A stretch of 64,000 nt of DNA from Betaproteobacteria bacterium (GCA_004298385.1 SCTX01000030.1:12069-76068); one strand, 5' to 3'. Shown: positions 9,119 through 25,238, counted from the first letter of the stretch. Notes: generated by a model from the letters alone, not told the origin. Translations and numbers: made by a program.

Positions 9119-9123
9119 AAAGG

Positions 9124-9638: not shown

Positions 9639-9824
9639 TGGCCAGTCCGCGGCCGGAAAACCAGTATCCACGGGCTTCTCCACGCAGTCGTCCCCTGCGG
9701 GCGGCATCCCTGGCCGTTCGGCCCACTGCCCTCGCCCCTGCTCCTGCTGTATCCTTACGCAAACGAAAACACGTGGTCCGGCAATCCGATGCCGGCTCGC
9801 CGGACCGGAAAAGAGGAACCCGCC

Positions 9825-10226
9825 ATGGACAACACCCAGCTCGCTGAACTCCTCATGGGCATCGCCAAGGCCCAGGCCGCCATCATCGATGCCATTGAGC
9901 GCGCCCAACCCGGCTTTAAGAACAACCACGCCGTGCCCATTCTCACCACCGCCGCTAACGTGCGCGCCGCCGTGCCGCGCATCCAGGACTTGCCTGCGCG
10001 CATCCTGCTGCGCATGCAGGGTCGCGCCGCGTTCGACGTCGCGCAGATCCAGCAGGACCTGGAGGCGGCGTTCGCTTCGCATGGTGTTGCGCCCGGCGCG
10101 TCCGCGGAACCCGGAGCGAATCTTTCGCCGGCGGCGATGCGGGCGGCGGCGAGAGTGCCGGGGGCGGCGCCGGCTCCTGCTCCTGCAGCGCCTGGGGCAG
10201 ACTTGAATTTCGGCGCGAAACCTTGA
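9825..10226 (+). CDS. Hypothetical protein with a helical N-terminus and an Ala/Pro-rich tail
   Basis: ATG at 9825 is preceded by AAGAGGA. 133 aa, MDNTQLAELLMGIAKAQAAIIDAIERAQ...AAPAPAPAAPGADLNFGAKP. I recognise no family. A weak hairpin follows at 10236-10253. Confidence 0.45.
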   Translation: MDNTQLAELLMGIAKAQAAIIDAIERAQPGFKNNHAVPILTTAANVRAAVPRIQDLPARILLRMQGRAAFDVAQIQQDLEAAFASHGVAPGASAEPGANLSPAAMRAAARVPGAAPAPAPAAPGADLNFGAKP

Positions 10227-10319
10227 TGTGGCACCCTCCCGCGTCTGCGGGAGTTGTAGTGACTGCGAGAAAGGCCTTCTATGGCTCTGCCAAGAAATGT
10301 TCGGCAATAAGCGGCTGGC

Positions 10320-13300
10320 ATGAACAATCAGTTCTTCGAAAAGCCGATACTCAATTCGCCCTACGCCTATCCAATTCGTCATTGGGAGCTGGATGAGGTT
10401 GGGCAGCCGACCCAGAAGATCGTCGAAACGCGCCGCCGCGCAGAATTCATCACGCCGATCCCCAAGCCGAAGAAGCGCAAGGGAGCGGCGCAGCAGGACT
10501 CGCTGCTGTTCGACGAGGGCGCTGGCTTAACTACATCGAAACAGCGTTACGATCACACGGCCATTATCAATTCCGTGCGCCAGCAAGTGGATGCGTGGCG
10601 CAAGCTGCCCAACACCAATGACTGGCGCGTCACGCCCGAGACCGCGCGGCTGCTGCAGCATTGGCGCCAGCACAAATTCGGCGGCATCCGGCCGTTCTTC
10701 TGCCAGATCGAAGCTGTCGAAACCGCGATCTGGCTGACCGAGGTTGCACCCCAGGCGGGTAAGGTGGGCGAAAGTTTCATCGCTCACCTGGCCGATTCTA
10801 ACAACGAGGCCAATCCGGAGTTGATGCGCCTCGCGCTCAAGCTGGCCACCGGCGCCGGCAAGACCACCGTCATGGCCATGCTGATCGCCTGGCAAACCAT
10901 CAACGCGGTGCGCCGCCCGCAGAGCAAGCGTTTCACGCGCGGCTTTCTCGTGGTCGCGCCGGGCCTCACCATCAAGGACCGTTTGCGGGTGCTGCAACCC
11001 AACGATCCGGACAGCTATTACGCCAGCCGCGAACTCGTGCCGAATGACCTGCTCATCGAAGTACACAAGGCCAAGATCGTCATCACCAACTTTCACGCGT
11101 TCAAGCTGCGCGAGCGTATCGAGCTGTCCAAGGGCGGCCGCTCCTTGCTGCAGGGCCGGGGCGAAGAATTGAACACGCTCGAAACCGAAGGCCAGATGCT
11201 GCAGCGGGTGATGCCCGACCTGATGGGTATGAAGAACATCCTGGTGCTGAACGACGAAGCGCACCATTGTTATCGCGCGAAGCCCGGAGCGGGAGAAGAA
11301 GACCTGAAGGGCGACGAGAGAAAGGAAGCGGAGAAAAACAAAGAGGCGGCGCGACTGTGGATCAACGGCCTCGAGGCGGTGAAGCGCAAACTCGGCGTCG
11401 CTCGCGTGATCGATTTGTCCGCCACGCCGTTCTTCCTCAGCGGCTCGGGTTATGCGGAAGGGACGCTGTTCCCCTGGACCATGAGCGATTTCTCGCTGAT
11501 GGACGCGATCGAGTGCGGCATCGTGAAACTGCCGCGCGTCCCGGTGGCCGACAACATCCCGGGCAATGAAATGCCTATGTTCCGGAACCTATGGGAACAC
11601 ATACGAGCCAAGATGCCCAAGAAAGGGCGTGGCAAAGCGGGAGTACTCGACCCGCGCGATCTCCCACCGCAGTTACAGACGGCGTTAGATGCGCTATACG
11701 GACACTATGCAAAGACCTTTGCGCTCTGGGTCGAGAAGAAGGTCTCGGTACCCCCCTGCTTTATCGTGGTCTGCAACAACACTTCCACTTCGAAGCTGGT
11801 CTACGATTACATTTCCGGCTTCCAGCAAGAGAGCGAGGACGGCACCAGTCAACTGGTGTTTGGTCGGCTGCCGTTGTTCCAGAACCATGATGAACACGGC
11901 AATCCGCTGTCCCGGCCAAGAACTCTCCTAATTGATAGCGAGCAATTGGAGTCGGGCGAAGGCCTTGATGAGAGTTTCCGCGCCATGGCCTCCGACGAGA
12001 TCGACCGCTTCCGCCGTGAGATTCTCGCACGTGGCGGCAAGCTGGCTGGTGAACTCCAGCAGGGCAAGGAGATCGATGACGTCACCCTGCTGCGCGAGGT
12101 AATGAATACAGTAGGCAAGCGCGAGCAGCTCGGTGCTGACATCCGTTGCGTCGTGTCCGTGTCCATGCTGACCGAAGGTTGGGATGCCAACACCGTGACG
12201 CATGTGCTCGGCGTGCGTGCATTCGGCACCCAGCTCTTGTGCGAGCAAGTGATTGGCCGCGCACTGCGCCGTCAGTCCTACGAACTCAACGAAGACGGCC
12301 TGTTCAATGTCGAGTATGCCGACGTACTGGGCATTCCCTTCGACTTCACCGCCAAGCCGGTGGTTGCTCCGCCGCAGCCGCCGCGCGAAACCATCACGGT
12401 CAAAGCCGTGCGTCCCGATCGCGATGCGCTCGAAATTCGCTTTCCCCGCGTGGAGGGCTATCGCGTCGAGCTGCCGGAGGAGCGGCTTACCGCACAGTTC
12501 GACAAGGACTCGGTGCTCGATTTAACACCCGAACTCGTGGGTGCGACGCGGACCCGGAACTCGGGGATCATCGGCGAGGCAGTCGATCTAAATTTGGTGC
12601 ATACCGGCGACATTCGTCCCTCCCAGGTCGTATACGAGCTTACTTCCCACCTGTTGCTTACCAAGTGGCGGGATGCCGACGGCGCGCCGCAACTGCATTT
12701 GTTCGGCCAGTTGAAGCGCATTGTCAAACAATGGCTGGACGAGAAGCGGCTGGATTGCCGTGGCGGAACCTATCCGGCGCAACTCAAGTACAAGATGCTC
12801 GCCGACATGGCGTGCGAGCGCATTATGGCGGGCATCATGCGCACATCCGTCGGAAAACGCCCGATCAAGGCCGTGCTCGATCCCTATAACCCGGTCGGGT
12901 CCACCGCCCATGTGCGTTTCAACACGTCGCGCAGCGACCGCTGGGAGACGAACGGCCCGCCGCCCAAATGCCACATCAACTGGGTGCTGCTCGACAGCGA
13001 CTGGGAAGGCGAATTCTGCCGCGTGGCGGAATCGCATCCGCGCGTGCGCGCCTACGTGAAGAACCACAACCTCGGCCTCGAAGTGCCCTACCGCTACGGC
13101 TCGGAGACGCGCAAGTACCTGCCCGACTTCATCGTGCGCGTGGACGACGGCCACGGCGAAGAAGATCTCTTGAACCTGATCGTGGAGATCAAGGGCTACC
13201 GGCGCGAGGACGCCAAGGAGAAGAAGTCCACCATGGACGCCTACTGGGTGCCGGGCGTGAACAACCTCGGCACGCACGGGCGCTGGGCCTTCGCCGAGTT

Positions 13301-13403
13301 CACCGAGGTGTATCAGATCGAATCGGACTTCGAGGCCAAGGTGAAAAGCGAGTTCGACAAGATGATCGAGCGCGTCGGGCAGGGCGCGGGATCGGTGGCG
13401 TAA
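10320..13403 (+). CDS. res: Type III restriction enzyme Res subunit (SF2 helicase plus C-terminal PD-(D/E)xK-like nuclease)
   Basis: 1027 aa. Helicase motif I is LATGAGKTTVMA, motif II is LNDEAHHCY, then DLSATPF, TEGWDANTV and QVIGRALRR. The C-terminal YLPDFIVRV...LIVEIKGYR looks like a nuclease core. Confidence 0.9.
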   Translation: MNNQFFEKPILNSPYAYPIRHWELDEVGQPTQKIVETRRRAEFITPIPKPKKRKGAAQQDSLLFDEGAGLTTSKQRYDHTAIINSVRQQVDAWRKLPNTNDWRVTPETARLLQHWRQHKFGGIRPFFCQIEAVETAIWLTEVAPQAGKVGESFIAHLADSNNEANPELMRLALKLATGAGKTTVMAMLIAWQTINAVRRPQSKRFTRGFLVVAPGLTIKDRLRVLQPNDPDSYYASRELVPNDLLIEVHKAKIVITNFHAFKLRERIELSKGGRSLLQGRGEELNTLETEGQMLQRVMPDLMGMKNILVLNDEAHHCYRAKPGAGEEDLKGDERKEAEKNKEAARLWINGLEAVKRKLGVARVIDLSATPFFLSGSGYAEGTLFPWTMSDFSLMDAIECGIVKLPRVPVADNIPGNEMPMFRNLWEHIRAKMPKKGRGKAGVLDPRDLPPQLQTALDALYGHYAKTFALWVEKKVSVPPCFIVVCNNTSTSKLVYDYISGFQQESEDGTSQLVFGRLPLFQNHDEHGNPLSRPRTLLIDSEQLESGEGLDESFRAMASDEIDRFRREILARGGKLAGELQQGKEIDDVTLLREVMNTVGKREQLGADIRCVVSVSMLTEGWDANTVTHVLGVRAFGTQLLCEQVIGRALRRQSYELNEDGLFNVEYADVLGIPFDFTAKPVVAPPQPPRETITVKAVRPDRDALEIRFPRVEGYRVELPEERLTAQFDKDSVLDLTPELVGATRTRNSGIIGEAVDLNLVHTGDIRPSQVVYELTSHLLLTKWRDADGAPQLHLFGQLKRIVKQWLDEKRLDCRGGTYPAQLKYKMLADMACERIMAGIMRTSVGKRPIKAVLDPYNPVGSTAHVRFNTSRSDRWETNGPPPKCHINWVLLDSDWEGEFCRVAESHPRVRAYVKNHNLGLEVPYRYGSETRKYLPDFIVRVDDGHGEEDLLNLIVEIKGYRREDAKEKKSTMDAYWVPGVNNLGTHGRWAFAEFTEVYQIESDFEAKVKSEFDKMIERVGQGAGSVA

Positions 13404-13404
13404 T

Positions 13405-13617
13405 GAGCGGGCGCAATACGGCGAGGAGATTCTGCCGACACCGTCGGCAGAATTGGTGCCGGTCTATGGCAAGGGTTTCAGCGCCCGTAGTCTGGCGCGC
13501 ATTGAACAATTTGCCAAGGCATTTCCAGAAGCAGAGATTGTTGCCACACTGTCGCAACAATTGGGCTGGAGCCAAGACACGAAAGGGCTCACAAACGGCT
13601 CAATGGGCTCACGGTAA
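13405..13617 (+). pseudogene. Internal fragment of a DUF1016/YhcG-type (PDDEXK nuclease family) gene
   Basis: The frame reads ERAQYGEEILPTPSAELVPVYGKGFSARSLARIEQFAKAFPEAEIVATLSQQLGWSQ..*. This matches the N-terminal region of DUF1016 proteins as I remember it (..YG..GFS..NL..MRQF...fp...iv..Ls.qLsWsH). There is no start codon and no nuclease domain. Confidence 0.6.
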
Positions 13618-13629
13618 TAAAGGAGGCAA

Positions 13630-13840
13630 TGAAGACTTGAGATGCCAATTTGGCATTTCAAGTTCGCTGCACCTCGTTCCCGCTGGTGCAATTATGCGAT
13701 CACGACCCGTGACCGCATCGACCGGGGAGCACTTCAACTGGTCACAAACTGTGACAAGTGCACGGGTAGACGAACCTTCAAGGTCACAATTTGTGATCTT
13801 GAAGGTTCGCAGTGGATGGAGGCAATTTTTCTACACCTTT
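13630..13840 (+). pseudogene. Degenerate ORF6N-type gene remnant (three tandem xSQxVTS-like motifs)
   Basis: One frame reads LRCQFGISS...NWSQTVTS...SRSQFVILKVRSGW. This resembles the SQ(I/F)VT(S/L) segment found after ORF6N domains, including the intact gene at 14303. There is no start codon and no N-terminal domain. Confidence 0.4.
13771..13809. repeat. 39-nt inverted repeat with a GGTCACAA-T-TTGTGA(T/C)C core
   Basis: CGAACCTTCAAGGTCACAATTTGTGATCTTGAAGGTTCG, one mismatch. A shorter GTCACAAACTGTGAC lies at 13741-13755. Confidence 0.85.
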
Positions 13841-13970
13841 AGTGCGGCGGCTCAAGACCGCAAAGGGGCAATAAAGGGGCGAAAGGGGCAATCGCAGCAG
13901 CTACCACGAACCCGCCAGACCGGGGACGGAATGGGGACAAATAGGGGACAAAAGGGACATGGCTAACACG

Positions 13971-14011
13971 GTGATTCTTTAAGGTCACAATTTGTGACCT
14001 TAAAGAATCAC
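13971..14011. repeat. Perfect 41-nt palindrome with the same GGTCACAATTTGTGACC core
   Basis: GTGATTCTTTAAGGTCACAA-T-TTGTGACCTTAAAGAATCAC. Confidence 0.9.
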
Positions 14012-14053
14012 ATTGTGTGGCCGAAGCTTTTCTCCGCTTTCACTGCGGAGTAA
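13979..14053 (+). pseudogene. ORF6N-type gene remnant
   Basis: Reads LRSQFVTLKNHIVWPKLFSAFTAE*. It aligns with RSQIVTLKRGENIKYLPYAFTEQ of the intact ORF6N gene (14303-14878), about half of positions identical by hand. Confidence 0.55.
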
Positions 14054-14095
14054 TCTGGTCGATCAAGCAGCAGATATACGCAAACAGGGGACATC

Positions 14096-14296
14096 ATGGC
14101 GAGCACCTTACTTCTGGAAAAGATGTCGGTGGAAGAAAAGCTTCAGGCAATGGAATCGCTTTGGGACGACTTGTGCAGCAAGGCGGGTGGCATGGCGTCT
14201 CCGGCCTGGCACGAAGACGTCCTGGCCGAAAGGGAGGCGATGCAAAAGCGCGGTGAAGATCGATTCGAAGACTGGGAAGCTGCAAAGAAGGACTGA
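14096..14296 (+). CDS. Small antitoxin-like protein ('putative addiction module component' type)
   Basis: 66 aa, MSVEEKLQAMESLWDDL...SPAWHEDVLAEREAMQKRGEDRFEDWEAAKKD. This fits my recollection of the Unstab_antitox/TIGR02574-like pattern (L..ER..L...LW.SL......W..E...R.....G......W.E.K). No toxin gene follows it. Confidence 0.5.
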   Translation: MASTLLLEKMSVEEKLQAMESLWDDLCSKAGGMASPAWHEDVLAEREAMQKRGEDRFEDWEAAKKD

Positions 14297-14302
14297 ACGA
14301 CA

Positions 14303-14878
14303 ATGCCATCGATCACCCCAAGAAGCACACCCAAACCTGAGAATCTCGCGTCGCTGATTTACCTGCTGCGCGGAGAAAGAGTGCTCCTGAGCGAGCACCT
14401 TGCCGAGCTTTATGCCGTTCCTGTCAAAGTCCTCAATCAAGCAGTCAAGCGCAACATAGATCGATTCCCTGATGACTTCATGTTCCAGCTTACTCTGGAT
14501 GAAGCGGAGGCCATCCTCCGTTCAAGGTCACAAATTGTGACCTTGAAGCGGGGCGAGAACATCAAGTACCTTCCTTACGCCTTCACCGAGCAGGGTGTCG
14601 CCATGCTCTCCAGCGTGCTGCGCTCGCCGCGCGCGGTGGAGGTTAATATCGCGATCATGCGCACTTTCGTGCAGTTGCGGCGCCTGATGGATTCAAATCG
14701 CAATCTCGCGCGCCGGATCGAGGCGCTGGAGAAACGCTACGACGAACAATTCGCCACCGTCTTCGATGCCATCAAACGGCTGATCGCGGAAGACGAAAGC
14801 CGCAAGGCCAAGCCGAAACGCGGCATCGGCTTTCTTGCTGAACCCCGAACCAAGTACCGCGTCCAGACCCGATCCTGA
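14303..14878 (+). CDS. ORF6N-domain (KilA-N-related) DNA-binding protein
   Basis: 191 aa. IYLLRGERVLLSEHLAELYAVPVKVLNQAVKRNIDRFPDDFMFQLT...RSQIVTLKRGENIKYLPYAFTEQGVAMLSSVLRSPRAVEVNIAIMRTF is the typical ORF6N architecture. Confidence 0.75.
   Translation: MPSITPRSTPKPENLASLIYLLRGERVLLSEHLAELYAVPVKVLNQAVKRNIDRFPDDFMFQLTLDEAEAILRSRSQIVTLKRGENIKYLPYAFTEQGVAMLSSVLRSPRAVEVNIAIMRTFVQLRRLMDSNRNLARRIEALEKRYDEQFATVFDAIKRLIAEDESRKAKPKRGIGFLAEPRTKYRVQTRS
14521..14547. repeat. 27-nt perfect palindrome inside the ORF6N coding sequence
   Basis: TTCAAGGTCACAA-A-TTGTGACCTTGAA, which encodes SRSQIVTLK. Confidence 0.9.
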
Positions 14879-14890
14879 CGCACCGACACC

Positions 14891-17704
14891 ATGGCTAAGA
14901 AATCGAATAACCCAAAGACCGTAGAAGCCCTGAAGCACGACGAGGCGACGCGCAAGAACATCCCCACGGCCGAATACCAGTCCGTGCTGCAAAAGGCGGA
15001 GCAGAACCCCGTTCGCGTGGCTTACGAAAGACGCAATCGCGATCTGGACCCGCAACTCGTCTGGCGCGGCAAGGACGAACAGGACTGGAGCGACCTCGTC
15101 GTCCATGCCCCGCCGCTCTACATCCAGGAAAAGGTCCACCCCAAGGCGCTGATCGACGATCTGCTGCGCGAGACGAAGGAGCGCGAGCATGAGGCGGGTC
15201 AGACTACCGCCGACTTGTTTGCCGACTTCAACGGCATACCCAAGGGCGTGGACAAGACCGAGTTCTACCAGCACGACCAGAACTGGTCGAACCGCATGAT
15301 CCTAGGGGATTCGCTGCAGGTGATGGCTAGCCTTGCGGAGCGCGAAGGGCTGCGGGGTAAAGTGCAGTGCATCTTCCTTGATCCGCCCTACGGTATCAAA
15401 TTCAACAGCAACTTTCAGTGGTCCACTACAGATAGAGCTGGGACCACCACAGATTCGTCGGAGAAGATCAGCAGGGAACCGGAGCAGGTGAAAGCCTTCC
15501 GCGACACTTGGCGCGATGGCATCCACAGTTACCTCACCTACCTGCGTGACCGCTTCTCCGTTGCTCGTGATCTTCTCACGGAATCCGGTTCCATCTTCGT
15601 TCAAATCGGTGATGAGAACGTGCATCGAGTTCGAGTGGTGATGGATGAGATTTTTGGCGATGACAATTTTGTGGCTCTGATTCCATTCCGGAAGAAGACC
15701 ATGCCCTTTGGTTCGAGATATATTGAGCAGATGGCAGATTTCATACTTTGGTATGCAAAGGCGAAGACCGATTCGCGAGGCAATGCGAATGCAAAATACC
15801 GAAAGCAATTCCTACTGCGTTCGGTTGAAGGTGAGTTTCACCATTGCTGGTATGAAGACACCGAAGGTGTTCGAACCAGAATGTCGAGACGCCAACTCTA
15901 CAATCATGCATTGCTCCCGCCAAAATCCCGTGTGTATCGACTAAAGTCGCTTGAGCCTTCAGGACGAATGGACTCTGGGATGTTTAGTTTTGAGTTTCGC
16001 GGTCGACCCTACCCACATCCGAAGAACGGATTCGGAACGACCGAGGAAGGGTTAAGACAGATAGAGAAGACCAACCGTTTAGAGCCCGAAGGGAATCGTC
16101 TTTGTTACGTTCTGTACGCCGATGAGGGCGAGTCGTCCCAGATGACAGCACCTTGGTCTGACACAGTAGGGGCTGATGACAAGCAGTATGTCGTGCAGAC
16201 CAATACCGAGGTTGTAAAACGCTGCATTTTGATGACGACTGACCCTGGCGACCTAATCCTTGACCCGACGTGCGGCTCCGGCACCTCCGCTTTCGTCGCG
16301 GAACAATGGGGCCGGCGCTGGATCACCATTGACACTTCGCGTGTGGCGCTCGCGCTGGCTCGCGCCCGCATCATGGGTGCCCGCTACCCGTATTACCTGC
16401 TCGCCGATTCGCGCGATGGCCAGATCAAGGAAGCCGAAATCACGCGAACCGCATTCTCCTCGCAGCCGGCGCGAGGCGATATCCGTCACGGCTTTGTCTA
16501 CGAGCGCGTGCCACATATCACGCTCAAATCCATCGCCAACAACGCCGAGATCGACGTGATTTGGGATCAGTGGCAGGCAAAGCTAGAGCCTTTGCGTAAC
16601 AAACTCAACGTAGCACTGAAGAAAACTTGGCGGGATTGGGAAATCCCGCGTGACGCGGAGGCCAAGTGGTCCGAGTCTGCCACGAGGCTACACGCCGAAT
16701 GGTGGCAGGCGCGTATTGAGCGGCAGAACGAGATCGATGCGTCCATCGCCGCCAAGGCGGAATTTGAATACCTCTACGACAAGCCGTACGACGACAAGAA
16801 AAAGGTCCGCGTGGCCGGGCCGTTCACCGTCGAAAGCTTGTCGCCTCATCGCGTGCTCGGCGTGGACGAGAACGACGAGCTGATCGACACCGCTGCTCAA
16901 TCAGGTGCCGACTATGCCGCCAAGCAGACCTTCCCTCAGATGATCCTGGAAAACCTCAAGGTCGCCGGCGTGCAACAGGCACACAAGGACGACCGCATCA
17001 GCTTTATTGCACTCAATCCCTGGCCCGGCGAGCTGATCTGCGCGGAAGGCCGCTACGTCGAAAGCAACGCTGAAACCGGCACCGAAAAGCGAGCTGCCAT
17101 TTTCATCGGCCCGGAGTTTGGCACCGTCACCCGTCCTGATCTGGTGTCCGCCGCGCGTGAAGCGGGTGATGCTGACTTCGACGTGCTCATCGCCTGCGCC
17201 TTCAACTACGAGGCCCATGCCACCGAGTTCAGCAAGCTCGGCCGCATCCCCGTGCTCAAGGCGCGCATGAACGCCGACCTGCACATGTCGGACGACCTAA
17301 AGAGCACGAACAAGGCCAACCTGTTCGTAATCTTCGGCGAACCCGACATCACCATCCTTCCGGAGAAAGACGGCAAGCTGCGCATCAAGGTCAACGGCGT
17401 GGACGTCTTCCACCCGCAAACCGGCGAAGTCCGCAGCGACGGACCCGAAGGCATCGCCTGCTGGTTCATCGACACCGACTACAACGAAGAAAGTTTCTTC
17501 GTCCGCCACGCCTACTTCCTCGGCGCCAACGACCCCTACACTGCGCTCAAGACCACCCTGAAGGCCGAGATTAACGAGGAAGCGTGGGCTACGCTGAATA
17601 GCGACACCTCACGCGCATTCGACAAGCCGAAGTCGGGGCGCATCGCTGTGAAGGTCATCAATCACCTCGGAGATGAGGTAATGAAGGTGTTTCGGGTAGG
17701 TTGA
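14891..17704 (+). CDS. mod: Type III DNA methyltransferase Mod subunit (beta-class N6-adenine/N4-cytosine MTase)
   Basis: 937 aa. Motif IV FLDPPYGIKF lies N-terminal to motif I DPTCGSGTSAFVAEQWGRRWITID, which is the beta-class order. The long region between them is consistent with a target recognition domain. Confidence 0.9.
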   Translation: MAKKSNNPKTVEALKHDEATRKNIPTAEYQSVLQKAEQNPVRVAYERRNRDLDPQLVWRGKDEQDWSDLVVHAPPLYIQEKVHPKALIDDLLRETKEREHEAGQTTADLFADFNGIPKGVDKTEFYQHDQNWSNRMILGDSLQVMASLAEREGLRGKVQCIFLDPPYGIKFNSNFQWSTTDRAGTTTDSSEKISREPEQVKAFRDTWRDGIHSYLTYLRDRFSVARDLLTESGSIFVQIGDENVHRVRVVMDEIFGDDNFVALIPFRKKTMPFGSRYIEQMADFILWYAKAKTDSRGNANAKYRKQFLLRSVEGEFHHCWYEDTEGVRTRMSRRQLYNHALLPPKSRVYRLKSLEPSGRMDSGMFSFEFRGRPYPHPKNGFGTTEEGLRQIEKTNRLEPEGNRLCYVLYADEGESSQMTAPWSDTVGADDKQYVVQTNTEVVKRCILMTTDPGDLILDPTCGSGTSAFVAEQWGRRWITIDTSRVALALARARIMGARYPYYLLADSRDGQIKEAEITRTAFSSQPARGDIRHGFVYERVPHITLKSIANNAEIDVIWDQWQAKLEPLRNKLNVALKKTWRDWEIPRDAEAKWSESATRLHAEWWQARIERQNEIDASIAAKAEFEYLYDKPYDDKKKVRVAGPFTVESLSPHRVLGVDENDELIDTAAQSGADYAAKQTFPQMILENLKVAGVQQAHKDDRISFIALNPWPGELICAEGRYVESNAETGTEKRAAIFIGPEFGTVTRPDLVSAAREAGDADFDVLIACAFNYEAHATEFSKLGRIPVLKARMNADLHMSDDLKSTNKANLFVIFGEPDITILPEKDGKLRIKVNGVDVFHPQTGEVRSDGPEGIACWFIDTDYNEESFFVRHAYFLGANDPYTALKTTLKAEINEEAWATLNSDTSRAFDKPKSGRIAVKVINHLGDEVMKVFRVG

Positions 17705-17762
17705 GGCGGGGAATGAACATGAAACTAATTGCGGCGAGTAACATCGGAAAGGTAGTTGACTT

Positions 17763-18317
17763 ATGACCGATGCAGATATGCGCAAGCTTCCACTGGAGTC
17801 GCTGCACGAGCGGCACACTGGTCTCACACCCTTATTGGCCGGCGCATTCTTTGAGGCTGCTTCGGTTTGCTTAAACCGACATCACAATTCACCCGTGGAG
17901 ATGGAGATTGCGCGCAATGGCGGCACGAGTACCAGGCTGGCCGAGTTTCAAAAGCCGGACGCCCGTATTCTGAACGCTTGGGCCAACGACATCGATACGA
18001 CCGAGAATGGCGCGTACTGTGTGAGCTTGGGGGCAATGGAAGTCGAGGAACAACTGGTCGCGGTCAAGCGTGCCGAGACACTTTCCGGGGCGGATTGGTA
18101 CGTTGCTCCGATTGGGACTACCCCTGATGATTTGGAGCGCTGCCTCCGGCTGGAGGTCTCGGGTCTCGATACTGGGGGTCGTTCGGCCGTGGAGGCGCGC
18201 TTGCGGCAGAAGGTTGACCAAACAAGGAGAGGTGCAAGTAACCTGCCCGCCATCGCATCAGTCGTGGGATTCAAGGAAAGATCGATCGCGATTCAAAGAG
18301 TGGGTGACGACGAATGA
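17763..18317 (+). CDS. Hypothetical protein, 184 aa (unknown family)
   Basis: ATG lies 58 nt after the mod stop. The stop overlaps the next start (ATGA at 18314-18317). I recognise no motif with confidence. Confidence 0.6.
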   Translation: MTDADMRKLPLESLHERHTGLTPLLAGAFFEAASVCLNRHHNSPVEMEIARNGGTSTRLAEFQKPDARILNAWANDIDTTENGAYCVSLGAMEVEEQLVAVKRAETLSGADWYVAPIGTTPDDLERCLRLEVSGLDTGGRSAVEARLRQKVDQTRRGASNLPAIASVVGFKERSIAIQRVGDDE

Positions 18318-19423
18318 CTTGGGCCGAACTCCATGCCGAAAGCGAGCAGCTGGCAATCGAAGCCCAGTTGGCCTTACTGGCCAGAAACGCTAGACAAGCA
18401 GTCGATCTGTACAGGCGTGCGGCGGAAGCCGAGCGTCGAGCGCTTGATCAGCTTGACGGCTCGAAAGTAAGAACCAGGGGCATCACGGCCGTTAGTACCG
18501 TGGCTCTTTGGTTCAAGGCTCGTGAGTACGCCCTAGCTGAGCAGCTTGCGCACGCAATGCTCGCCGATCCATACATCCCGGACTTTGCGCGTGAGGATCT
18601 GAGAAATCTTGTCCAAGCAATCTGGACAGAGAGTTCCATGCAGAAAGCGGGCGTCGAGTTCGTTCCAGGCCAGGTCATGGTCTCAGTAAAAGGTGGTGAG
18701 GTCGTTACTGGCGGGGCGCCTCTTGATTTGATCGTCGATAAGGTCCAGACGATTCAAAAAATGTTTTACAGGACGATCGAATTCGTGAACGGCGTTTCAC
18801 TTCGCAGGGCCGGGCCGCCGCCAAAAGAACTACAAGACGCTTGCCGACCTTGGCTGTTTCAATCGGCCCCCGGTAGCTATCAGTTCTCGGTTGCAATCCA
18901 AAAGCCCGCGCAATCCGATTTTTTCAAAAAAGATATTCAACCAGAGAGAATCGCGCAGCATTTTCTCGAAATCGTTAGTGCCTCATCAGGTGATAATGCT
19001 GCGACACTTGAAAAATTGGTGCCGGACGAAAAATACCGCAGCACGTTTTTGAAGCTTGCACGTAATCTCGCCCCTACCGGGAAGACTTTTGAGCGCATTG
19101 AATTCCGCGCGTCTGGCGAAACACGACCTGTCGCCCTCGGTGTCGAATCTAGGGTTAGCATTAATCAGCAGCTACGCAAGAAATCCGACGTTCCAACAAC
19201 AGTGGATGAAGTACCTGAAGAACTACACGGAACTTTGCGGGCTTTGCATCTGGACAAGGACTGGCTGGAGGTCGTTGTAGGCGACGTGTCCATGCATGTT
19301 GTTGGACTTCAGGACGCGGTTGACGACGTGATTGGTCCAATGGTGAATCGGACGGTGGTTGTCCGGGCCATTCGTAGCTCGCAGAACAAGCTCACGTTTT
19401 TGGACATTGAGCTTGCTGACTGA
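18314..19423 (+). CDS. Hypothetical protein, 369 aa (unknown family; helical Ala/Arg/Glu-rich N-terminus)
   Basis: Translationally coupled to the preceding ORF. A long clean ORF in a region that is visibly less GC-rich. I recognise no family. Confidence 0.65.
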   Translation: MTWAELHAESEQLAIEAQLALLARNARQAVDLYRRAAEAERRALDQLDGSKVRTRGITAVSTVALWFKAREYALAEQLAHAMLADPYIPDFAREDLRNLVQAIWTESSMQKAGVEFVPGQVMVSVKGGEVVTGGAPLDLIVDKVQTIQKMFYRTIEFVNGVSLRRAGPPPKELQDACRPWLFQSAPGSYQFSVAIQKPAQSDFFKKDIQPERIAQHFLEIVSASSGDNAATLEKLVPDEKYRSTFLKLARNLAPTGKTFERIEFRASGETRPVALGVESRVSINQQLRKKSDVPTTVDEVPEELHGTLRALHLDKDWLEVVVGDVSMHVVGLQDAVDDVIGPMVNRTVVVRAIRSSQNKLTFLDIELAD

Positions 19424-19446
19424 AGTGGGACGTCTACTCAGAACCG

Positions 19447-19547
19447 GCGACACATCCTGCGCCTTCGACAAACCGAAGTCCGGGCGCATCGCTGTGAAAG
19501 TGATCAACCACCTGGGGGACGAGATGATGAAAGTCTTCAAGGTGTAG
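19447..19547 (+). pseudogene. Relic of the 3' end of a second, diverged Type III mod gene
   Basis: Reads DTSCAFDKPKSGRIAVKVINHLGDEMMKVFKV*, against DTSRAFDKPKSGRIAVKVINHLGDEVMKVFRVG* at the end of the intact mod (17601-17704). 29 of 32 aa are identical, with about 20 nt differences, mostly at third codon positions. Confidence 0.8.
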
Positions 19548-19564
19548 CGTAGTATTGGGCCTAC

Positions 19565-20323
19565 ATGAGCGACCGTCTCCTTAATCTTAAGTCTCCTCCA
19601 ATTGTCGAGGCAGTTCTCGATATTGATTGCGACATGCCGCCTATGCTGGCACTGGACAAGTTGGAAGCATCCGCCCGAGATGCGTTCCGCGATCATTACC
19701 CGAAATTTCGAACACAATTTCTTCAGGCTCTGCACGTCGAGGCAGCAGCGGATCGTGCGCCGAACGTGACGACCAGACAAGGGATTCAGGCGCTCCAGTT
19801 TTTGCAAGAAGACGAGAAGCAGCTTGTGCAATTGCGGACACAAGGCTTTTCTTTTAATCGATTGGCCCCATATAAGAGCTTGGACGATTACTTGCCGGAA
19901 ATAGAACGGACGTGGCGGTTATTTGTCGACCTTGCTGCGCCGGTTCAAATACGCGTTATCCGATTACGGTATATCAATCGCATTCCGCTCCCGATGACTG
20001 CAGGACGGGTCGATTTGGACGATTACCTGAAACTCGGTCCGCGACTTCCGGATGAAGATAAACTGACATTTGAGGGATTTCTCACTAAACATTCGGCGGT
20101 GGAATCGGATACTGACAATCGAGTAAACATTATTCTTTCAGCGCAGCCACCAGAAAATGATAAGCTTCCTGTAATTCTTGACATTGAAACCTATAAATCG
20201 GGTAATGCGGAGCCGCATAATTGGGCAGAAAGCCTCTCGAAAATCCAATCTTTGCGACGCTTGAAGAACCTTGTTTTTGAGAATTCTCTTACAGACCAAT
20301 GTTTGAAGCTGTTTCAGCACTAA
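19565..20323 (+). CDS. Hypothetical protein, TIGR04255-like (uncharacterised family)
   Basis: 252 aa. The N-terminus LKSPPIVEAVLDIDCDMPP...FRDHYPKF fits my memory of the TIGR04255 signature (..aPL.EVv.eirF......l......f......yP.). This needs an HMM check. Confidence 0.6.
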   Translation: MSDRLLNLKSPPIVEAVLDIDCDMPPMLALDKLEASARDAFRDHYPKFRTQFLQALHVEAAADRAPNVTTRQGIQALQFLQEDEKQLVQLRTQGFSFNRLAPYKSLDDYLPEIERTWRLFVDLAAPVQIRVIRLRYINRIPLPMTAGRVDLDDYLKLGPRLPDEDKLTFEGFLTKHSAVESDTDNRVNIILSAQPPENDKLPVILDIETYKSGNAEPHNWAESLSKIQSLRRLKNLVFENSLTDQCLKLFQH

Positions 20324-20841
20324 GAGTCCATCTGGGGTTCGCGTCCCTTTATTCGCTTGCGCGCCCCGGAAGCGCCATTTCGGCTGAAGCGCAAGCGGTC
20401 CAAAGAGCCGCCACAAGTGTGGTGGACTCCGTAGAGCGCTCGCAAGCCTTGTTCGGTGATAAAGCGACCGCAATCTCTCAGTTATGGGCTCTCGCGAACG
20501 AATGTGGAGAGCCCGGTTGGGATGGCGATGCCGCATTACCGCTGGATCATATGGCTGTTTTCAAGGCTGTTGCCTTCATACGGGCCTTGCCAGATGGAGT
20601 ACCGCTACCGGAGTTTGCCCCCGGGCCTGACGGTTCACTATCTCTTGATTGGATTTCGTCTCGAAATCGTCTTTTTTCATTGAGCGTCGGCTCTGGCGAT
20701 CGCTTGCCGTATGCGTGGTTGGACGGGACCGACAAGGGCCACGCCGTGGCTCGCTTTGATGGAGAGAGCGTTCCGCAAAGAATCCTGGAAGGGATAACGT
20801 CAATCTTAAAAGTTGGAAGTGCTCTCGTCCGGTCTCACTGA
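20299..20841 (+). CDS. Hypothetical protein, 180 aa
   Basis: The ATG overlaps the previous gene by 25 nt. Contains EPGWDGDAALPLDHMAVFKAVAFIRALPDGVPLPEFAPGPDGSLSLDW. Family unknown and the start codon is uncertain. Confidence 0.55.
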   Translation: MFEAVSALRVHLGFASLYSLARPGSAISAEAQAVQRAATSVVDSVERSQALFGDKATAISQLWALANECGEPGWDGDAALPLDHMAVFKAVAFIRALPDGVPLPEFAPGPDGSLSLDWISSRNRLFSLSVGSGDRLPYAWLDGTDKGHAVARFDGESVPQRILEGITSILKVGSALVRSH

Positions 20842-21226
20842 AATTGTTGAAGATGAGGAAAGTCTCGCCAGATTCCTCACTTCCTCCAGTCAATTCAACG
20901 CAAGCGGCGCGAAGCCGTCTGTTTTTTTACCGAATCCTAAAGATAGAGCGAAATCCGTGTTCCGTCACGGGAGTCAACCGAGGGACTCTCTCTGGCGAAT
21001 CGCGGAAGAACATATGGCTGGAGTCCGGACGCTTTATGGGGCGGCGATTGTCAAGGCAAAACATGTTCGATCCGCGCTGCTGGACGTGGTCGCTCAGGAA
21101 CCACCCCCACGGCATGCCAACATTGTCGGGTGGCCTTGGTCCGAAACTGATCCGGAGATGAGGAAAGCCGAACACATAGAGCGTGCTCTCGTTATCGTTC
21201 AGTGGGCCGAGGTGGTTCGGCGGTAA
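20813..21226 (+). CDS. Hypothetical protein, 137 aa
   Basis: TTG start at 20813 (or GTG at 20819) overlaps the previous gene by about 29 nt. Contains SVFRHGSQPRDSLW...PPPRHANIVGWPW. Family unknown. Confidence 0.5.
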   Translation: MEVLSSGLTEIVEDEESLARFLTSSSQFNASGAKPSVFLPNPKDRAKSVFRHGSQPRDSLWRIAEEHMAGVRTLYGAAIVKAKHVRSALLDVVAQEPPPRHANIVGWPWSETDPEMRKAEHIERALVIVQWAEVVRR

Positions 21227-21267
21227 CCACGGGATCGTCTACCGCGTCGCACACCTCCCGACAAACG

Positions 21268-23343
21268 ATGGATTTCCGCATCGCCGACACCTTCACCGAC
21301 AGCCTCGCGCGCCTGACCGGCGACGAACAGAAGGCCGCCAAGACCACCGCTTTCGATCTGCAGCTCAATCCGGTGAACCCCGGGATGCAGCTCCACAAGA
21401 TCGAGAAATCCAAGGACAAGAATTTCTGGTCGGTGCGCGTCGGCGCCGACATCCGCCTGATCGTGCACAAATCGCCGGGCAGCTTGCTGCTTTGCTACGT
21501 GGATCATCACGACAAGGCTTACGACTGGGCCAGGCGGCGGAGGCTGGAAGCGCATCCGAAGACGGGGGCGGCACAGTTTGTGGAGATCCGCGAGACGGTG
21601 CAGGAAATTCTGGTGCCGGCTTATGTCGAGGAGGCGAAGCCTGCGCCATATTTGGAGCCGTTGTTCGCGAAAGTTTCGGATGACGAGTTGCTCGGCTACG
21701 GCGTGCCCGCGGAGTGGCTGGCGGACGTGCGTGCCGCCACGGAAGGGACCCTGCTGACGCTGGCCGACCATTTGCCCGGCGAAGCGGCCGAGGCGCTGTT
21801 GGAACTGGCGACCGGCGGCAAACCGCGCGCGCCGCAGCCGGTCGCGCAGAAGGTGAACCCGTTCGATCATCCGGACGCGCAGCGCCGGTTCCGCGTGATG
21901 AGCAATGTGGAGGAGCTGGAGCGCGCGCTCGAGTTCCCGTGGGACAAATGGACGGTGTTTCTGCACCCGGAGCAGCGGCAATGGGTCGAGCGGGACTACG
22001 CCGGGCCGGCGCGGGTGTCGGGTTCCGCGGGCACGGGCAAGACCATCGTGGCGCTGCATCGTGCTGTGTACCTTGCGCGCAGCGATCCCGACAGCCGGGT
22101 GCTGCTGACGACGTTCTCCGAAACGCTGGCGAACGCGCTGCGCACGCGCTTGAGACGCTTGCTCGGCAACCAACCACGACTCGCCGAGCGGCTAGAGGTG
22201 CATGCCATGAATGCGATCGGCGAGCGTTTGTACGAGCAGCATTTTGGGAAGCCGCAGATCGCCACGCGCGAACTCATCCGCCGCTATATCGCGGCAGCGG
22301 TGGCAGAGCATGAAGGCCAGAAATTCAGCCCCGCTTTCCTGTTGTCGGAGTGGGAAGAGTTGGTCGATGCCTGGCATCTGGAGAACTGGGAGTCGTATCG
22401 GGACGTGAAGCGCCTGGGCAGGAAGACCCGCTTGCCCGAGGCCAGGCGCGCGACGCTTTGGGCGATGTTCGACGCGGTGCGTAAGCGCGTGGATGCCGAG
22501 GGGTTGGTCACCCGCGCGGGACTGTTCAATCGCCTGGCGGGCCAATTGCGTGAGCGCAAGCATCCGCCTTTCGACTATGTCGTGGTGGACGAGTCGCAAG
22601 ACGTGAGCGTGGCGCAACTGCGATTTCTGGCTGCGCTCGGAGCGGAGCGGCCAAATGGCCTCTTCTTTGCCGGCGATCTCGGACAGCGGATTTTCCAGCA
22701 GCCGTTTTCATGGAAATCCCTCGGCGTGGACATACGCGGCCGCGCGCGCACGCTGCATATCAACTACCGCACCTCGCATCAGATCCGGACGCAGGCGGAC
22801 CGGCTGCTCGCCCCCGAAGTGGCGGACGTGGACGGCAATGTCGAGGAACGCCGCGGCACGGTCTCGGTATTCAACGGACCGCCTCCTGTGGTTCAAGTCT
22901 TCGACAGCCAGGAAGAGGAAATCGAAGCGGCCGGTGCGTGGTTGGCTGAGAGGAGAAAGGAAGGCGTGATGTCTCACGAGATCGGCGTATTCGTGCGCTC
23001 GGAGGCGCAGCTGGAACGCGCCCGCGCAGCGCTCGCCCGAGCCGGACTGCCGTTCAAGGTGCTCGACGACGGCGTGGAGATAACCTACGGTCGGGTGTCT
23101 ATCAGTAGCATGCATCTGGCCAAGGGCCTGGAGTTCCGCGCGGTGGCGGTGATGGCCTGCGACGACGAAGTCATTCCGTTGCAGGCGCGCATCGAGACCG
23201 CGGCCGAGGATTCCGATCTGGAAGAGGTGTACAACACCGAACGCCACCTGCTGTACGTCGCCTGCACGCGGGCACGGGATCACCTGCTTGTCACAAGCGT
23301 AGAACCCGCGTCGGAATTTCTGGACGATCTTCAATCGAGATAA
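21268..23343 (+). CDS. UvrD/Rep-like SF1 helicase with an N-terminal RelE/ParE-like domain
   Basis: 691 aa from ATG 21268. Walker A is SGSAGTGKTIVALHRA and motif II is VVVDESQDVS, followed by INYRTSHQI, SMHLAKGLEFRAV and LLYVACTRARDHLLV. The first ~90 aa (FWSVRVGADIRLIVHKSPGSLLLCYVDHHDKAY) resemble the RelE/ParE toxin fold pattern. Confidence 0.85.
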   Translation: MDFRIADTFTDSLARLTGDEQKAAKTTAFDLQLNPVNPGMQLHKIEKSKDKNFWSVRVGADIRLIVHKSPGSLLLCYVDHHDKAYDWARRRRLEAHPKTGAAQFVEIRETVQEILVPAYVEEAKPAPYLEPLFAKVSDDELLGYGVPAEWLADVRAATEGTLLTLADHLPGEAAEALLELATGGKPRAPQPVAQKVNPFDHPDAQRRFRVMSNVEELERALEFPWDKWTVFLHPEQRQWVERDYAGPARVSGSAGTGKTIVALHRAVYLARSDPDSRVLLTTFSETLANALRTRLRRLLGNQPRLAERLEVHAMNAIGERLYEQHFGKPQIATRELIRRYIAAAVAEHEGQKFSPAFLLSEWEELVDAWHLENWESYRDVKRLGRKTRLPEARRATLWAMFDAVRKRVDAEGLVTRAGLFNRLAGQLRERKHPPFDYVVVDESQDVSVAQLRFLAALGAERPNGLFFAGDLGQRIFQQPFSWKSLGVDIRGRARTLHINYRTSHQIRTQADRLLAPEVADVDGNVEERRGTVSVFNGPPPVVQVFDSQEEEIEAAGAWLAERRKEGVMSHEIGVFVRSEAQLERARAALARAGLPFKVLDDGVEITYGRVSISSMHLAKGLEFRAVAVMACDDEVIPLQARIETAAEDSDLEEVYNTERHLLYVACTRARDHLLVTSVEPASEFLDDLQSR

Positions 23344-23413
23344 TAGAAGAACTTGTCATTCTACGGCGGTCTAAAATGGGAACGCGACATCCGCCCACCA
23401 ACCCAAGGTACAA

Positions 23414-23830
23414 ATGGCCACTACGGACTTCGACCCCAACGACACACCCGCCCCGCTCCCCCGCGATGGACTGATCACACTCACGCACGTGATCTACGGC
23501 TTGCACGCGTTCAGCGCCCTCACCGGCCTGCTGAGCTCGGCGCTGATCGTCACGGCCTTCCTCTCCGGCTGGCCGTCGATCATCGCGGTGATCCTCAACT
23601 ACGTGAAGCGCTCGGATGTGCGCGGCACCTGGCTCGATTCGCACTTCGGCTGGCAAATCCGCACGTTTTGGTTCGCGCTCTTGTTCTTCGTGGCGGGCGG
23701 AATTGCGTTCGTAACGGTGCTGGGAATTCCGATCGCGATAGTTGTCTGGATTTGCACCGGCATCTGGGTGCTCTACCGCATCGTGCGCGGCTGGATGGGG
23801 CTCGCTGAGAAGAAGGCGATGCCGCTGTAG
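23414..23830 (+). CDS. Small integral membrane protein (DUF4870/COG3671-like)
   Basis: 138 aa with about four transmembrane helices. Contains ILNYVKRSDVRGTWLDSHFGWQIRTFWF. Confidence 0.6.
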   Translation: MATTDFDPNDTPAPLPRDGLITLTHVIYGLHAFSALTGLLSSALIVTAFLSGWPSIIAVILNYVKRSDVRGTWLDSHFGWQIRTFWFALLFFVAGGIAFVTVLGIPIAIVVWICTGIWVLYRIVRGWMGLAEKKAMPL

Positions 23831-24041
23831 TTGGAGGATTGCCGAGGCTCTCCTCGATACGCGGGCACAGGCCAGTCCTCTCGGGCAAGCGCAAAGTGCC
23901 GCCGCAGCCGACATGCCTGCGGCTGGGACCGATTGCAATTACACCGACACCGGCGACCGCCGAGAGAATAACAATCAAAGCCGTGCTATAGTCATTTCGC
24001 TTGTTTTTTTGAAACGACAACCCGCGGAAGGAGGCTCACCC

Positions 24042-25238
24042 ATGAAACTCGGAATTCTCGGAATTACGTTGTTAGTAGCCGCGCTCGGCGCAACGTCGAC
24101 GCTGGCCCAGTCCAAAGCACCCGGCGTGACCGACACCGAGGTGACCATCGGCATAACGACGCCGCTATCGGGGCCTGCAGCCGCTTGGGGGACGACGGCG
24201 CTGGCAGCGGAGGCGTGGTCCAAGCACGTCAACGAGCAGGGTGGGGTGCATGGCCGCAAGATCAAGGTCGTGATGAAGGACGACGGCTATAATCCGGGCC
24301 GCGCCCTGGCCAACGTTAACGAAATGAAAGACTCGGTGTTCGCGCTCGTGGGTCTGCTCGGAACGGCGGTGCTCAACGCGAACAAGGACACTATCGCCGA
24401 CGCCAAGCTGCCCACCATCTGGCCCTACGGCAATCCGGAGGTGTTTGCCAAGCAGCCCAAGGAAAAGAACCGCACCGTTTTCATGGTGTATCCGGACTAC
24501 ACCGACGAGGGCGATTTCCTGGTGCAACAGGCCGCGAAGCTCACCGGAGCCAAAAAGGTGGCGGTCTTCTACCAGAACGACGACTACGGCAAGGGCGGGC
24601 TCGACGGCGTCAAGCGGGGCGTAGCCAAGCTGGCCGGATCGATGGCGCTGGCGGGGGAGGTAGCTTACGAGGTCGCGGACCGCGAACTGAGCACGCATGC
24701 GCTGAAGATCAAGGAGTCCGGCGCCGACAGCATCATTATCTACGCCACCGTAACCCACTGCGCCGGGCTGATCAAGGAAATGGCCAAGGTGGGCTACCGG
24801 CCGAAAATCTTCGCCTCGTTCCCTCTCGGTGACCGGCACACGATGTTCCGCCTGCTGGGCGAGCTCTGGGAAGGAGCCTATTACAACGTGACCGGGGCGG
24901 TCCCGGGCGAGCCAGAGGGGGACCGGATCATCGACATCCTGCTCAAGCAAGAGCCGAAACTGAAGGGACGGGAGAGCTTCGCCCTGACGGGCGCCGCGGC
25001 AATGATGGCCGCGGTCGAGGGCCTAAAACGCGCCGGGAAGAACCTGACCCGCGAGGGGTTCATCGAGGCCATGGAGAGTATCAGGGGCTGGTCGCCAGAG
25101 AAGCTAACGGCGCCGGTCACCTGGGGCCCGAACCGTCACCACGGAGGAAACCCGATTCGCATGATGCAGGCGATGAAGGCCGCCGACACCTCCTTTAAGA
25201 CGGTCACCGACTATCAGCCCTTCCCAGCCCACTTCTGA
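24042..25238 (+). CDS. ABC transporter periplasmic substrate-binding protein (Leu/Ile/Val-binding protein family)
   Basis: ATG at 24042 follows GGAAGGAGG. Signal peptide MKLGILGITLLVAALGATSTLAQ. Contains GITTPLSGPAAAWG...DDGYNPGRA. Confidence 0.85.
   Translation: MKLGILGITLLVAALGATSTLAQSKAPGVTDTEVTIGITTPLSGPAAAWGTTALAAEAWSKHVNEQGGVHGRKIKVVMKDDGYNPGRALANVNEMKDSVFALVGLLGTAVLNANKDTIADAKLPTIWPYGNPEVFAKQPKEKNRTVFMVYPDYTDEGDFLVQQAAKLTGAKKVAVFYQNDDYGKGGLDGVKRGVAKLAGSMALAGEVAYEVADRELSTHALKIKESGADSIIIYATVTHCAGLIKEMAKVGYRPKIFASFPLGDRHTMFRLLGELWEGAYYNVTGAVPGEPEGDRIIDILLKQEPKLKGRESFALTGAAAMMAAVEGLKRAGKNLTREGFIEAMESIRGWSPEKLTAPVTWGPNRHHGGNPIRMMQAMKAADTSFKTVTDYQPFPAHF

Follow-up and report, generated by a model that had tools for sequence, protein, structure and literature searches.

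A second, decayed methyltransferase gene end between two gene cassettes as the probable scar of a fusion of two restriction-modification operons

Why should the end of one gene stand a second time in the same operon, 1.8 kb further on and directly in front of another set of genes? The question is raised by a 64,000-nucleotide (nt) stretch of DNA from a Betaproteobacteria bacterium (GCA_004298385.1, SCTX01000030.1:12069-76068), which as a whole is called the window here. It carries an operon with a restriction endonuclease gene (res), a Type III-like DNA methyltransferase gene (mod) and a UvrD-like helicase gene. Two gene cassettes, c184-c369 and TIGR04255-p180-p137, are stacked between mod and the helicase gene, and at the seam between them the last 33 codons of mod are found again as a relic. 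With a probability of roughly 0.78, this relic is the scar of a non-homologous fusion of two operons that carried different cassettes. The features on which the argument depends are the following, with lengths in nt and amino acids (aa) and related loci from other sequences designated by L numbers.

10320-13403, plus strand: res, a BPTD_3080-family restriction endonuclease with a superfamily 2 (SF2) helicase and an endonuclease domain, first gene of the conserved trio (NCBIfam NF046055, 1370 bits at a cut-off of 800)
14891-17704, plus strand: mod allele A, intact, encoding a 937-aa Type III-like N6-adenine DNA methyltransferase (PADLOC MTase_III PDLC03632, 1370 bits, model positions 73-983); copy 1 of the repeat is formed by its final 33 codons (17601-17704)
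17705-17762, plus strand: 58-nt native 5' spacer of c184-c369 (the same 58 nt separate the mod stop from the c184 start in L087; partly conserved in L088)
17763-19423, plus strand: cassette 1, a recurrent two-gene module of c184 (17763-18317) and c369 (18314-19423), both intact
19424-19443, plus strand: first 20 nt of the native downstream spacer of c369 (aligns with the c369-to-uvrD spacers of L089, L081 and L150)
19441-19446, no strand: non-homologous junction of the left parent (flank of cassette 1) with the right parent (mod allele B at about codon -34), from the window compared with the L089/L150 spacers and with the L169 mod upstream of 7023
19447-19547, plus strand: the relic, a pseudogene fragment in which the final 33 codons of mod allele B and its stop are left; it forms copy 2 of the repeat and is also the native 5' flank of cassette 2 (identical to the L169 mod tail at 87 of 98 positions)
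19565-21226, plus strand: cassette 2, with a TIGR04255-family gene (19565-20323, E 1.5e-32), p180 (20299-20841) and p137 (20813-21226)
21268-23343, plus strand: UvrD-like helicase gene, third gene of the conserved trio (Pfam UvrD-helicase and UvrD_C)

A preliminary description of this DNA, made from the sequence alone, had noted that the mod tail at 17601-17704 recurs at 19447-19547. This is borne out both by a repeat search, in which 17601-17691 and 19447-19537 (82% identical) form the sole direct-repeat family within 14000-24000, and by a back-translated tail pattern, which finds no more than these two copies in the 64-kb window (17601-17698 and 19447-19544) and gave no match in 100 shuffles. 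The same description had counted 29 of 32 identical amino acids and about 20 differences in 96 nt, mainly at third codon positions, and a codon-by-codon alignment of 17603-17698 with 19449-19544 returns identical figures, with the 20 differences distributed 3/1/16 over codon positions 1, 2 and 3; its spacings, 58 nt from the mod stop to c184 (17705-17762) and 17 nt from the relic to the TIGR04255 gene (19548-19564), are likewise correct. Copy 2 matches the C-terminal 33 positions of the Type III methyltransferase model PDLC03632 (E 1.2e-10) and scores 72 bits with a hidden Markov model of the mod tail built from 81 alleles, the best decoy reaching 11 bits. By the method of Nei and Gojobori, the proportion of synonymous differences between the two tails (pS) is 0.74 and thus saturated, and that of non-synonymous differences (pN) 0.054, giving for dN/dS, the calculation of which had been proposed, an omega of about 0.015. 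With 20 of 96 nt different and the synonymous sites saturated, copy 2 is neither a fresh nor a target-site duplication, as had been stated; the longest exact run shared by the copies is 17 nt. The window's own tail agrees with the consensus of the 81 alleles, and it is about as far from the relic as randomly paired alleles of different phyla are from each other (median 23/96). At its 5' side the homology of copy 2 to mod stops at 19446/19447, and the codons that precede it differ from the near-invariant EEAWATLNS of real mod genes.

The second copy has a relative in L169, a metagenome contig, of which positions 7023-10921 align with 19447-23348 of the window at 90.3% identity over 3.9 kb. This alignment begins exactly at the left edge of the relic, and upstream of 7023 an intact mod continues in L169. 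The mod tail of L169 is identical to the relic at 87 of 98 positions, the window's own tail at 78 of 98. It had been claimed that copy 2 is the tail of a different mod allele, whose divergence took place under purifying selection and whose body was lost afterwards, and the type of this allele has now been found in L169. Loci in which mod is followed directly by the TIGR04255 operon had been suggested as a check and do exist: in L169, L170 and L171, an intact mod leads over a spacer of 18 nt to TIGR04255-p180-p137, and the helicase gene comes next. Synonymous divergence (dS) between the window and L169 amounts to 0.28 for the TIGR04255 gene, 0.28 for p180 and 0.36 for the helicase gene, i.e. 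to the right of the relic, and to 0.61 for res, 0.64 for the ORF6N gene that lies between res and mod, and 0.78-0.90 for the conserved parts of mod, i.e. to its left. At synonymous sites the left block is thus two to three times more diverged from L169 than the right block. Because the dS of the left block exceeds that of the right block, the relatedness to L169 is judged to change at the relic, and the operon is, by this comparison, a chimera.

The other side of the joint can be assigned as well. The 20 nt after the c369 stop (19424-19443) can be aligned with the c369-to-helicase spacers of L089, L081 and L150 and are followed by a switch to mod at about codon -34; in a blastn comparison L089 9471-11129 aligns with 17784-19442 of the window, and in other loci the spacer downstream of c369 runs on to the start of the helicase gene. 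At the junction, the spacer sequence ...CTACTCAGAA passes directly into ...GCGACAC of mod B, and the parental types L089/L150 and L169 share there no more than 3-5 nt (..GAA..); new joints at such short microhomologies are expected of homology-facilitated illegitimate recombination. The stacking is read as a fusion of two loaded operons because the 5' edge of the relic is non-homologous and the left block is more diverged from L169. A parent A with res, mod, c184-c369 and helicase gene would have been joined to a parent B with res, mod, the TIGR04255 cassette and helicase gene, and the fusion would have removed the helicase gene of A, the res of B, and all of mod B but 33 codons, so that the outcome would be a single operon in which both cassettes are stacked. 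This may have happened by a deletion inside a tandem operon pair, or incoming DNA may have been integrated by way of homology at one side alone (homology-facilitated illegitimate recombination). Homologous res and mod sequences lie to the left of the junction, and a tandem-pair deletion, as in L059, gives the same product. Tandem copies with deletions do exist, since L059 (12669-14415) has the system a second time in tandem, in a partly deleted form: helicase codons 1-160 run straight into res codons 967-1012, behind which another mod begins. A route by which a second operon copy may arrive is given by the occurrence of the system on a conjugative plasmid (L173, see below). After the fusion, the two tail copies, being direct repeats, should permit the clean loss of c184-c369, which is a prediction of this mechanism.

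If operons fuse in this manner, other loci should carry scars at the seams of their cassettes, and such scars have been found:

L087: after c369 a mod-tail relic (VMKVFKV and stop), then an AAA_15 gene
L164: two decayed mod tails
L088: a decayed 12-codon mod tail to the left of c184
L081 and L089: helicase-head relics of 13-14 codons
L084: relics of the helicase head, 22 and 15 codons long
L165, 9479-9607: a helicase-head relic of 41 codons, called as a 42-aa gene by the source pipeline
L065: a helicase head, then a mod tail
L090: a helicase head, then a mod tail; among these scars, helicase residues 1-70 are fused in frame to the final 13 residues of mod

At the seams that have both types of scar, the helicase head precedes the mod tail, which is the order predicted by a fusion of two operons. 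Relics that score above all decoys are present in 6 of the 13 slots of at least 3 kb and in none of the 47 shorter ones (p = 3e-5). Some fragments of host genes have also been seen in other places. L054 has two res-head relics (53 and 21-23 codons) upstream of its intact res (2237-3492) and a 19-codon mod-tail relic 440 nt past mod (13178-13234), and cassette stacking with scars may thus occur also upstream of res. In L011, which has a decayed version of TIGR04255-p180-p137, an inverted helicase-head fragment of 39 codons lies on the minus strand (6951-7067) between p180 and a 5'-truncated helicase gene, the only inverted scar that was seen.

The preliminary description had regarded the mod 3' end as a homologous-recombination anchor for the swapping or stacking of downstream genes. 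For the stacking this does not hold, as the 5' edge of the relic is non-homologous, but for later swaps it is plausible in view of the comparisons of L088 with the window and of L169 with L170. In L088, an independent metagenome contig, the relic is present as well and begins at the same left edge; this contig is 93% identical to the window over 17672-19537 and 92% in the helicase gene from its ATG on, with cassettes that differ on both sides: another gene is present upstream of c184, and an AAA_16 ATPase gene replaces the TIGR04255 cassette. Mismatches of the window with L088 become denser along the relic, with 9 in 72 nt followed by 11 in 30 (p = 0.012 without correction). As to a crossover in the first 120 nt of the L088 helicase gene, this stretch is variable in all pairs, and the downstream flanks of L088 and L164 have 56 nt of weak similarity only. 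The window and L169 are identical in the last 23 nt of the relic or tail. Between L169 and L170, the pS is 0.2-0.3 in the cassette, 0.6-1.0 in mod with about 0.5 in its last 90 codons, and 0.7-1.0 in the helicase gene beyond about codon 30, and L081 and L089 have a common helicase-head junction with different upstream cassettes. It is suggested by these sequence comparisons that homologous crossovers near conserved gene ends explain the later cassette swaps, for which the conserved mod 3' end, the relic and the 5' end of the helicase gene would serve as crossover zones.

Could the relic be kept for a function, either as a small protein encoded by the open reading frame (ORF) 19359-19547 or as a cis element for the expression of the TIGR04255 cassette? 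The relic and the 17-nt spacer are the native 5' flank of this cassette, where a ribosome-binding or coupling signal would be situated, and the changes between the relics of the window and of L088 are somewhat enriched in synonymous ones (6 synonymous and 4 non-synonymous in 24 codons). However, the pN between these two relics is 0.073 compared to 0.012 for the adjacent c369, and R→C and V→M exchanges have occurred at positions that are R and V in 81 of 81 functional tails. L088 has an H at the position of the invariant R, where the window has the C, and no start codon in frame, and the length of relics elsewhere varies from about 10 to 33 codons. Scans of the relic gave no promoter-like, terminator-like or Rfam match. 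The preliminary description would have been contradicted by an intact, conserved small gene at 19359-19547, and this has not been found, as the 62-aa ORF is startless in L088 and has its invariant residues replaced. The coding constraint on the relic is lost, it is a decaying, ordinary pseudogene fragment, and a retained function is quite improbable. A recent intragenomic duplication or an assembly artefact, for which the bare direct repeat could be quoted and nothing else, is practically out of the question in view of the 20/96 differences with saturated synonymous sites, a distance between relic and own tail as among random alleles from different phyla, and the recurrence of the relic in the independent contig L088. 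The direct repeat of a gene 3' end around an insert is also the classical signature of site-specific integrative elements, and c184-c369 could be regarded as the cargo of such an element that targets the mod 3' end, brings a replacement tail, and has the repeat as attL and attR. This is very hard to reconcile with the locus: the genes of 10320-23343 are, by Pfam and NCBIfam, free of recombinase, transposase and integrase domains, none of the genes examined in 203-10382 and 10320-25238 was found to have a recombinase domain, there are no tRNA genes in the window, and the copies share no identical core longer than 17 nt. The insert consists only of c184 and c369, both without family, and the junction positions vary by locus, with the flank often being a head of the helicase gene. 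The readings as fresh duplication, artefact, small gene or att-site element were thus rejected because the copies have diverged, the relic recurs in an independent contig, the ORF lacks a start codon in L088 and no recombinase was found.

More has to be said about an insertion of the Campbell type, in which a small circle with c184-c369 and a 33-codon mod-tail fragment would have integrated by one homologous crossover in the tail of an L169-like mod. Such an event yields exactly what is seen, a full tail, a cassette and a 5'-truncated tail, and tail copies flank the cassette in the window as well as in L088, where the left one is the decayed 12-codon tail. A mosaic relic is also conceivable, as 11 of its mismatches with L169 fall into the first 72 nt and 1 into the last 30. 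This distribution is, by estimate, not significant, and neutral decay of the relic suffices for it. The two tail copies are only 80% identical with 17 nt as their longest exact run, and mod body, ORF6N gene and res should all be of the resident type in such a case, yet they are two to three times more diverged from L169 than the right block. The junctions of c184-c369 differ elsewhere (helicase heads of 13, 15, 22 and 41 codons, mod tails of about 10-12), and therefore several independent non-homologous events have to be assumed. A Campbell-type insertion is thus unlikely, and the fusion of two operons is preferred, although several points weigh against it. There is no sampled locus that has the left block of the window at high identity, the nearest still being L169 with 84-85% at the nt level. 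The case for two parents is built on a two- to threefold difference in dS, which gene-specific rates or a later replacement in L169 could partly explain, and the data do not separate tandem-pair deletion from integration with one-sided homology. The crossover inside the L088 relic depends on the single uncorrected p of 0.012 given above. With a mean pairwise nt identity of 0.81 the mod tail is conserved, yet it ranks only 112th of 923 windows, with the peak about 245 nt upstream, and due to this rank the tail was rejected as an exceptional island of homology. One stacked slot, L097, has no recognisable scar. Finally, the scars are all short, with no more than 34 codons of mod and, apart from L059 with about 160, no more than 70 of the helicase gene, unlike in a model of random breakpoints, and this shortness would require a selection against long untranslated stretches or a later trimming.

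Cassette 1 is an entity of its own. Loci with mod directly followed by the two-gene cassette had been expected as well and were found (L087, L102, L104 and L165); c184-c369 is the sole occupant of the mod-to-helicase slot in L102, L104, L106 and L107 and one among several cassettes in L081, L084, L087, L089, L164 and L165. More than 1900 homologues of c369 exist, and of the 120 best-scoring ones listed, 105 have exactly 369 aa and the remainder 362-371 aa. Relatives with less than 60% identity are mostly encoded outside of res-mod-helicase operons (28 of 30), those with at least 60% mostly inside (16 of 23). The AlphaFold2 model of c369 has a mean pLDDT (predicted local distance difference test) of 72 and an N-terminal TPR-like helical repeat, and PDB searches gave neither a fold match below E 0.04 nor a match by sequence. 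Neither c184 and c369 nor p180 and p137 belong to a family in Pfam, NCBIfam or PADLOC; p137, which overlaps the end of p180, is 80-92% conserved in L168-L172. The module c184-c369, widespread and unannotated, is a reasonable candidate for a defence system.

The operon of the window is one of many that carry such cargo. There are two cargo slots in the res-mod-helicase operon, the one from res to mod with 12 nt to 2.6 kb and the one from mod to the helicase gene with 5 nt to 6 kb, and in the genome sample 43 of 77 of the former and 37 of 50 of the latter are loaded. Almost all ORFs of the mod-to-helicase slot (89 of 91) are co-oriented, and the genes carried in the two slots are mostly of defence type, so that the accessory cassettes are probably directed against phages. 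The slot cargo includes the Pfam families HamA, SIR2_2, DUF87/HerA, GmrSD_N and AAA_15/AAA_21 and matches to the PADLOC models HEC-01A, AriA, PtuA, GajA and AbiLi, of which the HEC-01A, AriA, PtuA and GajA matches are ABC/AAA_15-21 ATPases; ORF6N corresponds to PDC-S05. The two cassettes that are stacked in the window have no defence annotation themselves. The first slot of the window holds cargo and debris:

13366-14878, plus strand: content of the res-to-mod slot, with a truncated DUF1016_N fragment (13366-13617, Pfam E 4.5e-14), a 66-aa Unstab_antitox gene (14096-14296, Pfam E 2.4e-12) and an ORF6N/PDC-S05 gene (14303-14878, Pfam E 8.8e-31, PADLOC PDC-S05 E 1.8e-52)

In L169, the ORF6N gene follows immediately after res, so that 13370-14302 of the window is extra sequence. 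Two short ORF6N-like motif fragments, read by eye and without a family match, lie at about 13640-14053. When the res-to-mod slot was searched for remnants of res tails and mod heads, nothing convincing stood out above the decoys, except for one weak match in L039.

The host operon itself is best compared in 80 related loci, which came from a scan of one genome per species, belong to many phyla and have mod genes of 63-72% identity. Upstream of mod there is a res in 79 of these 80 and downstream a helicase gene in 57. A Mod with an N6/N4 methyltransferase domain (Pfam N6_N4_Mtase, E 3.1e-32) and a Res with SF2 helicase/ATPase (ResIII, E 1e-8) and endonuclease domains (RE_endonuc with 21.5 bits, slightly below its cut-off of 23.4) are features of Type III restriction-modification systems. 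The two-gene unit of mod followed by res that characterizes these systems is not present, as the order is res and then mod, with the helicase gene in third position in the 57 loci. Because res precedes mod and there is a conserved third gene, the operon is, on the basis of its gene arrangement, classified as Type III-like and not as a canonical member. In mod, positions 15670-16180 have no nucleotide similarity to any related locus, with both flanks aligning, and this part probably is the target-recognition domain; since this is so probable, the alleles likely methylate different sites. The true start of the helicase gene is the ATG at 21268 (MDFRIADTFTD), where its homologues begin, and codons 1-22 of the longest ORF, which opens at a GTG at 21202, are probably not translated.

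A cargo-free version of the trio, with the three genes back to back, is found in L173 (NZ_CP091148.1 18967-27027) on a conjugative plasmid of Pseudomonas avellanae, between insertion sequence (IS) elements, and its helicase is called a '3'-5' exonuclease' in RefSeq. The setting in the window is chromosomal, with parB and an F-type ATP synthase operon upstream (1-9118) and a branched-chain-type periplasmic binding protein downstream (23742-25238). Directly 3' of the helicase gene, a 138-aa ORF is found at 23414-23830, which has counterparts with 72% aa identity at the same position only in the L081 family, and in L168 and L169 a NERD gene stands at its place; a third variable position may exist behind the helicase gene. 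Insertions of 1.2-2.9 kb split mod in L040 (12589-14450) and the helicase gene in L072 (15704-18600) and L075 (11580-12740), with both halves present in each case, and these could be IS elements, introns or cassettes.

Several known systems resemble this operon in part. The hotspots of P2/P4 phages and satellites also have variable defence cargo between conserved flanking genes, fast modular swaps and small intergenic remnants that are read as traces of recombination, and the mechanism of their swapping is still discussed. They differ in that they lie in mobile elements between unrelated core genes, whereas the slot described here is inside a defence operon, and in that their remnants are unrecognisable, whereas identifiable pieces of the flanking genes permit parents and junction to be reconstructed here.

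Homology-facilitated illegitimate recombination, which de Vries and Wackernagel reportedly described in 2002 for naturally transformable bacteria, places a foreign segment beside a homologous anchor and joins its far end at a microhomology of few bases, comparable to the at most 5 nt at 19441-19446. Classic cases of this recombination delete recipient DNA and do not leave a duplicated gene end. In the window, the gene end is duplicated, and the anchor as well as the route (transformation, conjugation or tandem-pair deletion) are not observable from the sequence. Integron arrays, of which some cassettes are defence systems, are similar as ordered, co-oriented stacks of promoterless-looking cassettes in one transcription unit with a repeated element at the seams. 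The difference is that there is no integrase here and that the seams are neighbour-gene relics of variable length instead of attC sites, with each junction being an individual accident; the boundaries hold mod or helicase fragments or nothing, no dedicated attC model having been run. Islands of the tRNA/tmRNA type likewise do not disrupt their target gene and have its displaced 3' end at the other end of the insert, but a recombinase, an identical core and a fixed junction are all missing here, and the displaced copy and the DNA downstream of it come from another allele lineage.

The closest parallel are embedded defence genes, which have been described for the hosts Hma, BREX, DISARM and Type I restriction-modification systems with 96.7% co-orientation, and the classic case of which is PrrC inside EcoprrI (Payne et al., bioRxiv 10.1101/2024.01.29.577857). 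Like in these cases, the extra genes are nested within a defence operon and co-oriented (89/91), and many known defence families are among them. The host is a different one, as the Type III-like trio of res, mod and UvrD-like helicase is outside of the four hosts of that study: among the PADLOC matches listed (the best 25 of 50 mod families and the best 25 of 43 helicase families) there are no Hma, BREX, DISARM or Type I models, and the host genes match Type III methyltransferases and restriction endonucleases, Type II and orphan methyltransferases, mads, and GajB/UvrD-type models. Also, the origin of the embedding is not treated in that study, and neither recombination nor remnants are mentioned in it (bioRxiv 10.1101/2024.01.29.577857), whereas the scars of host-gene ends are a direct footprint here. 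In the literature searched, no papers on BPTD_3080 or TIGR04255 were found, and in a search of limited coverage none on scars of host-gene termini at the seams of embedded cassettes.

It could be speculated further that the res-mod-helicase operon is a phylum-spanning cassette platform that needs no integrase, with the conserved mod 3' end, the 5' end of the helicase gene and the relics of both as portable attachment sequences, by which the cassettes flanked by such relics would excise, circulate and re-insert in other operons through short-homology recombination, possibly helped by the nuclease and helicase of the system itself at their own locus; scars such as 19447-19547 would then be functional landing pads and not inert debris. 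This idea is rather unlikely.

The relic alone is a pseudogene fragment, and its value lies in the readable history of an embedded cassette stack. Embedding is now used to discover immune systems, and how embedded genes arrive is an open point in that literature. In the case described here, the seams are legible, and both parents and the junction can be named. The model that emerges is that stacking would take place by non-homologous fusion of loaded operon copies, and swapping by homologous crossovers near the conserved ends. Relics that are called as genes, as in L165, will inflate the counts of small hypothetical proteins in metagenome catalogues. As a practical rule, short orphan matches to the terminus of a host gene mark cassette boundaries, and they can delimit modules such as c184-c369.

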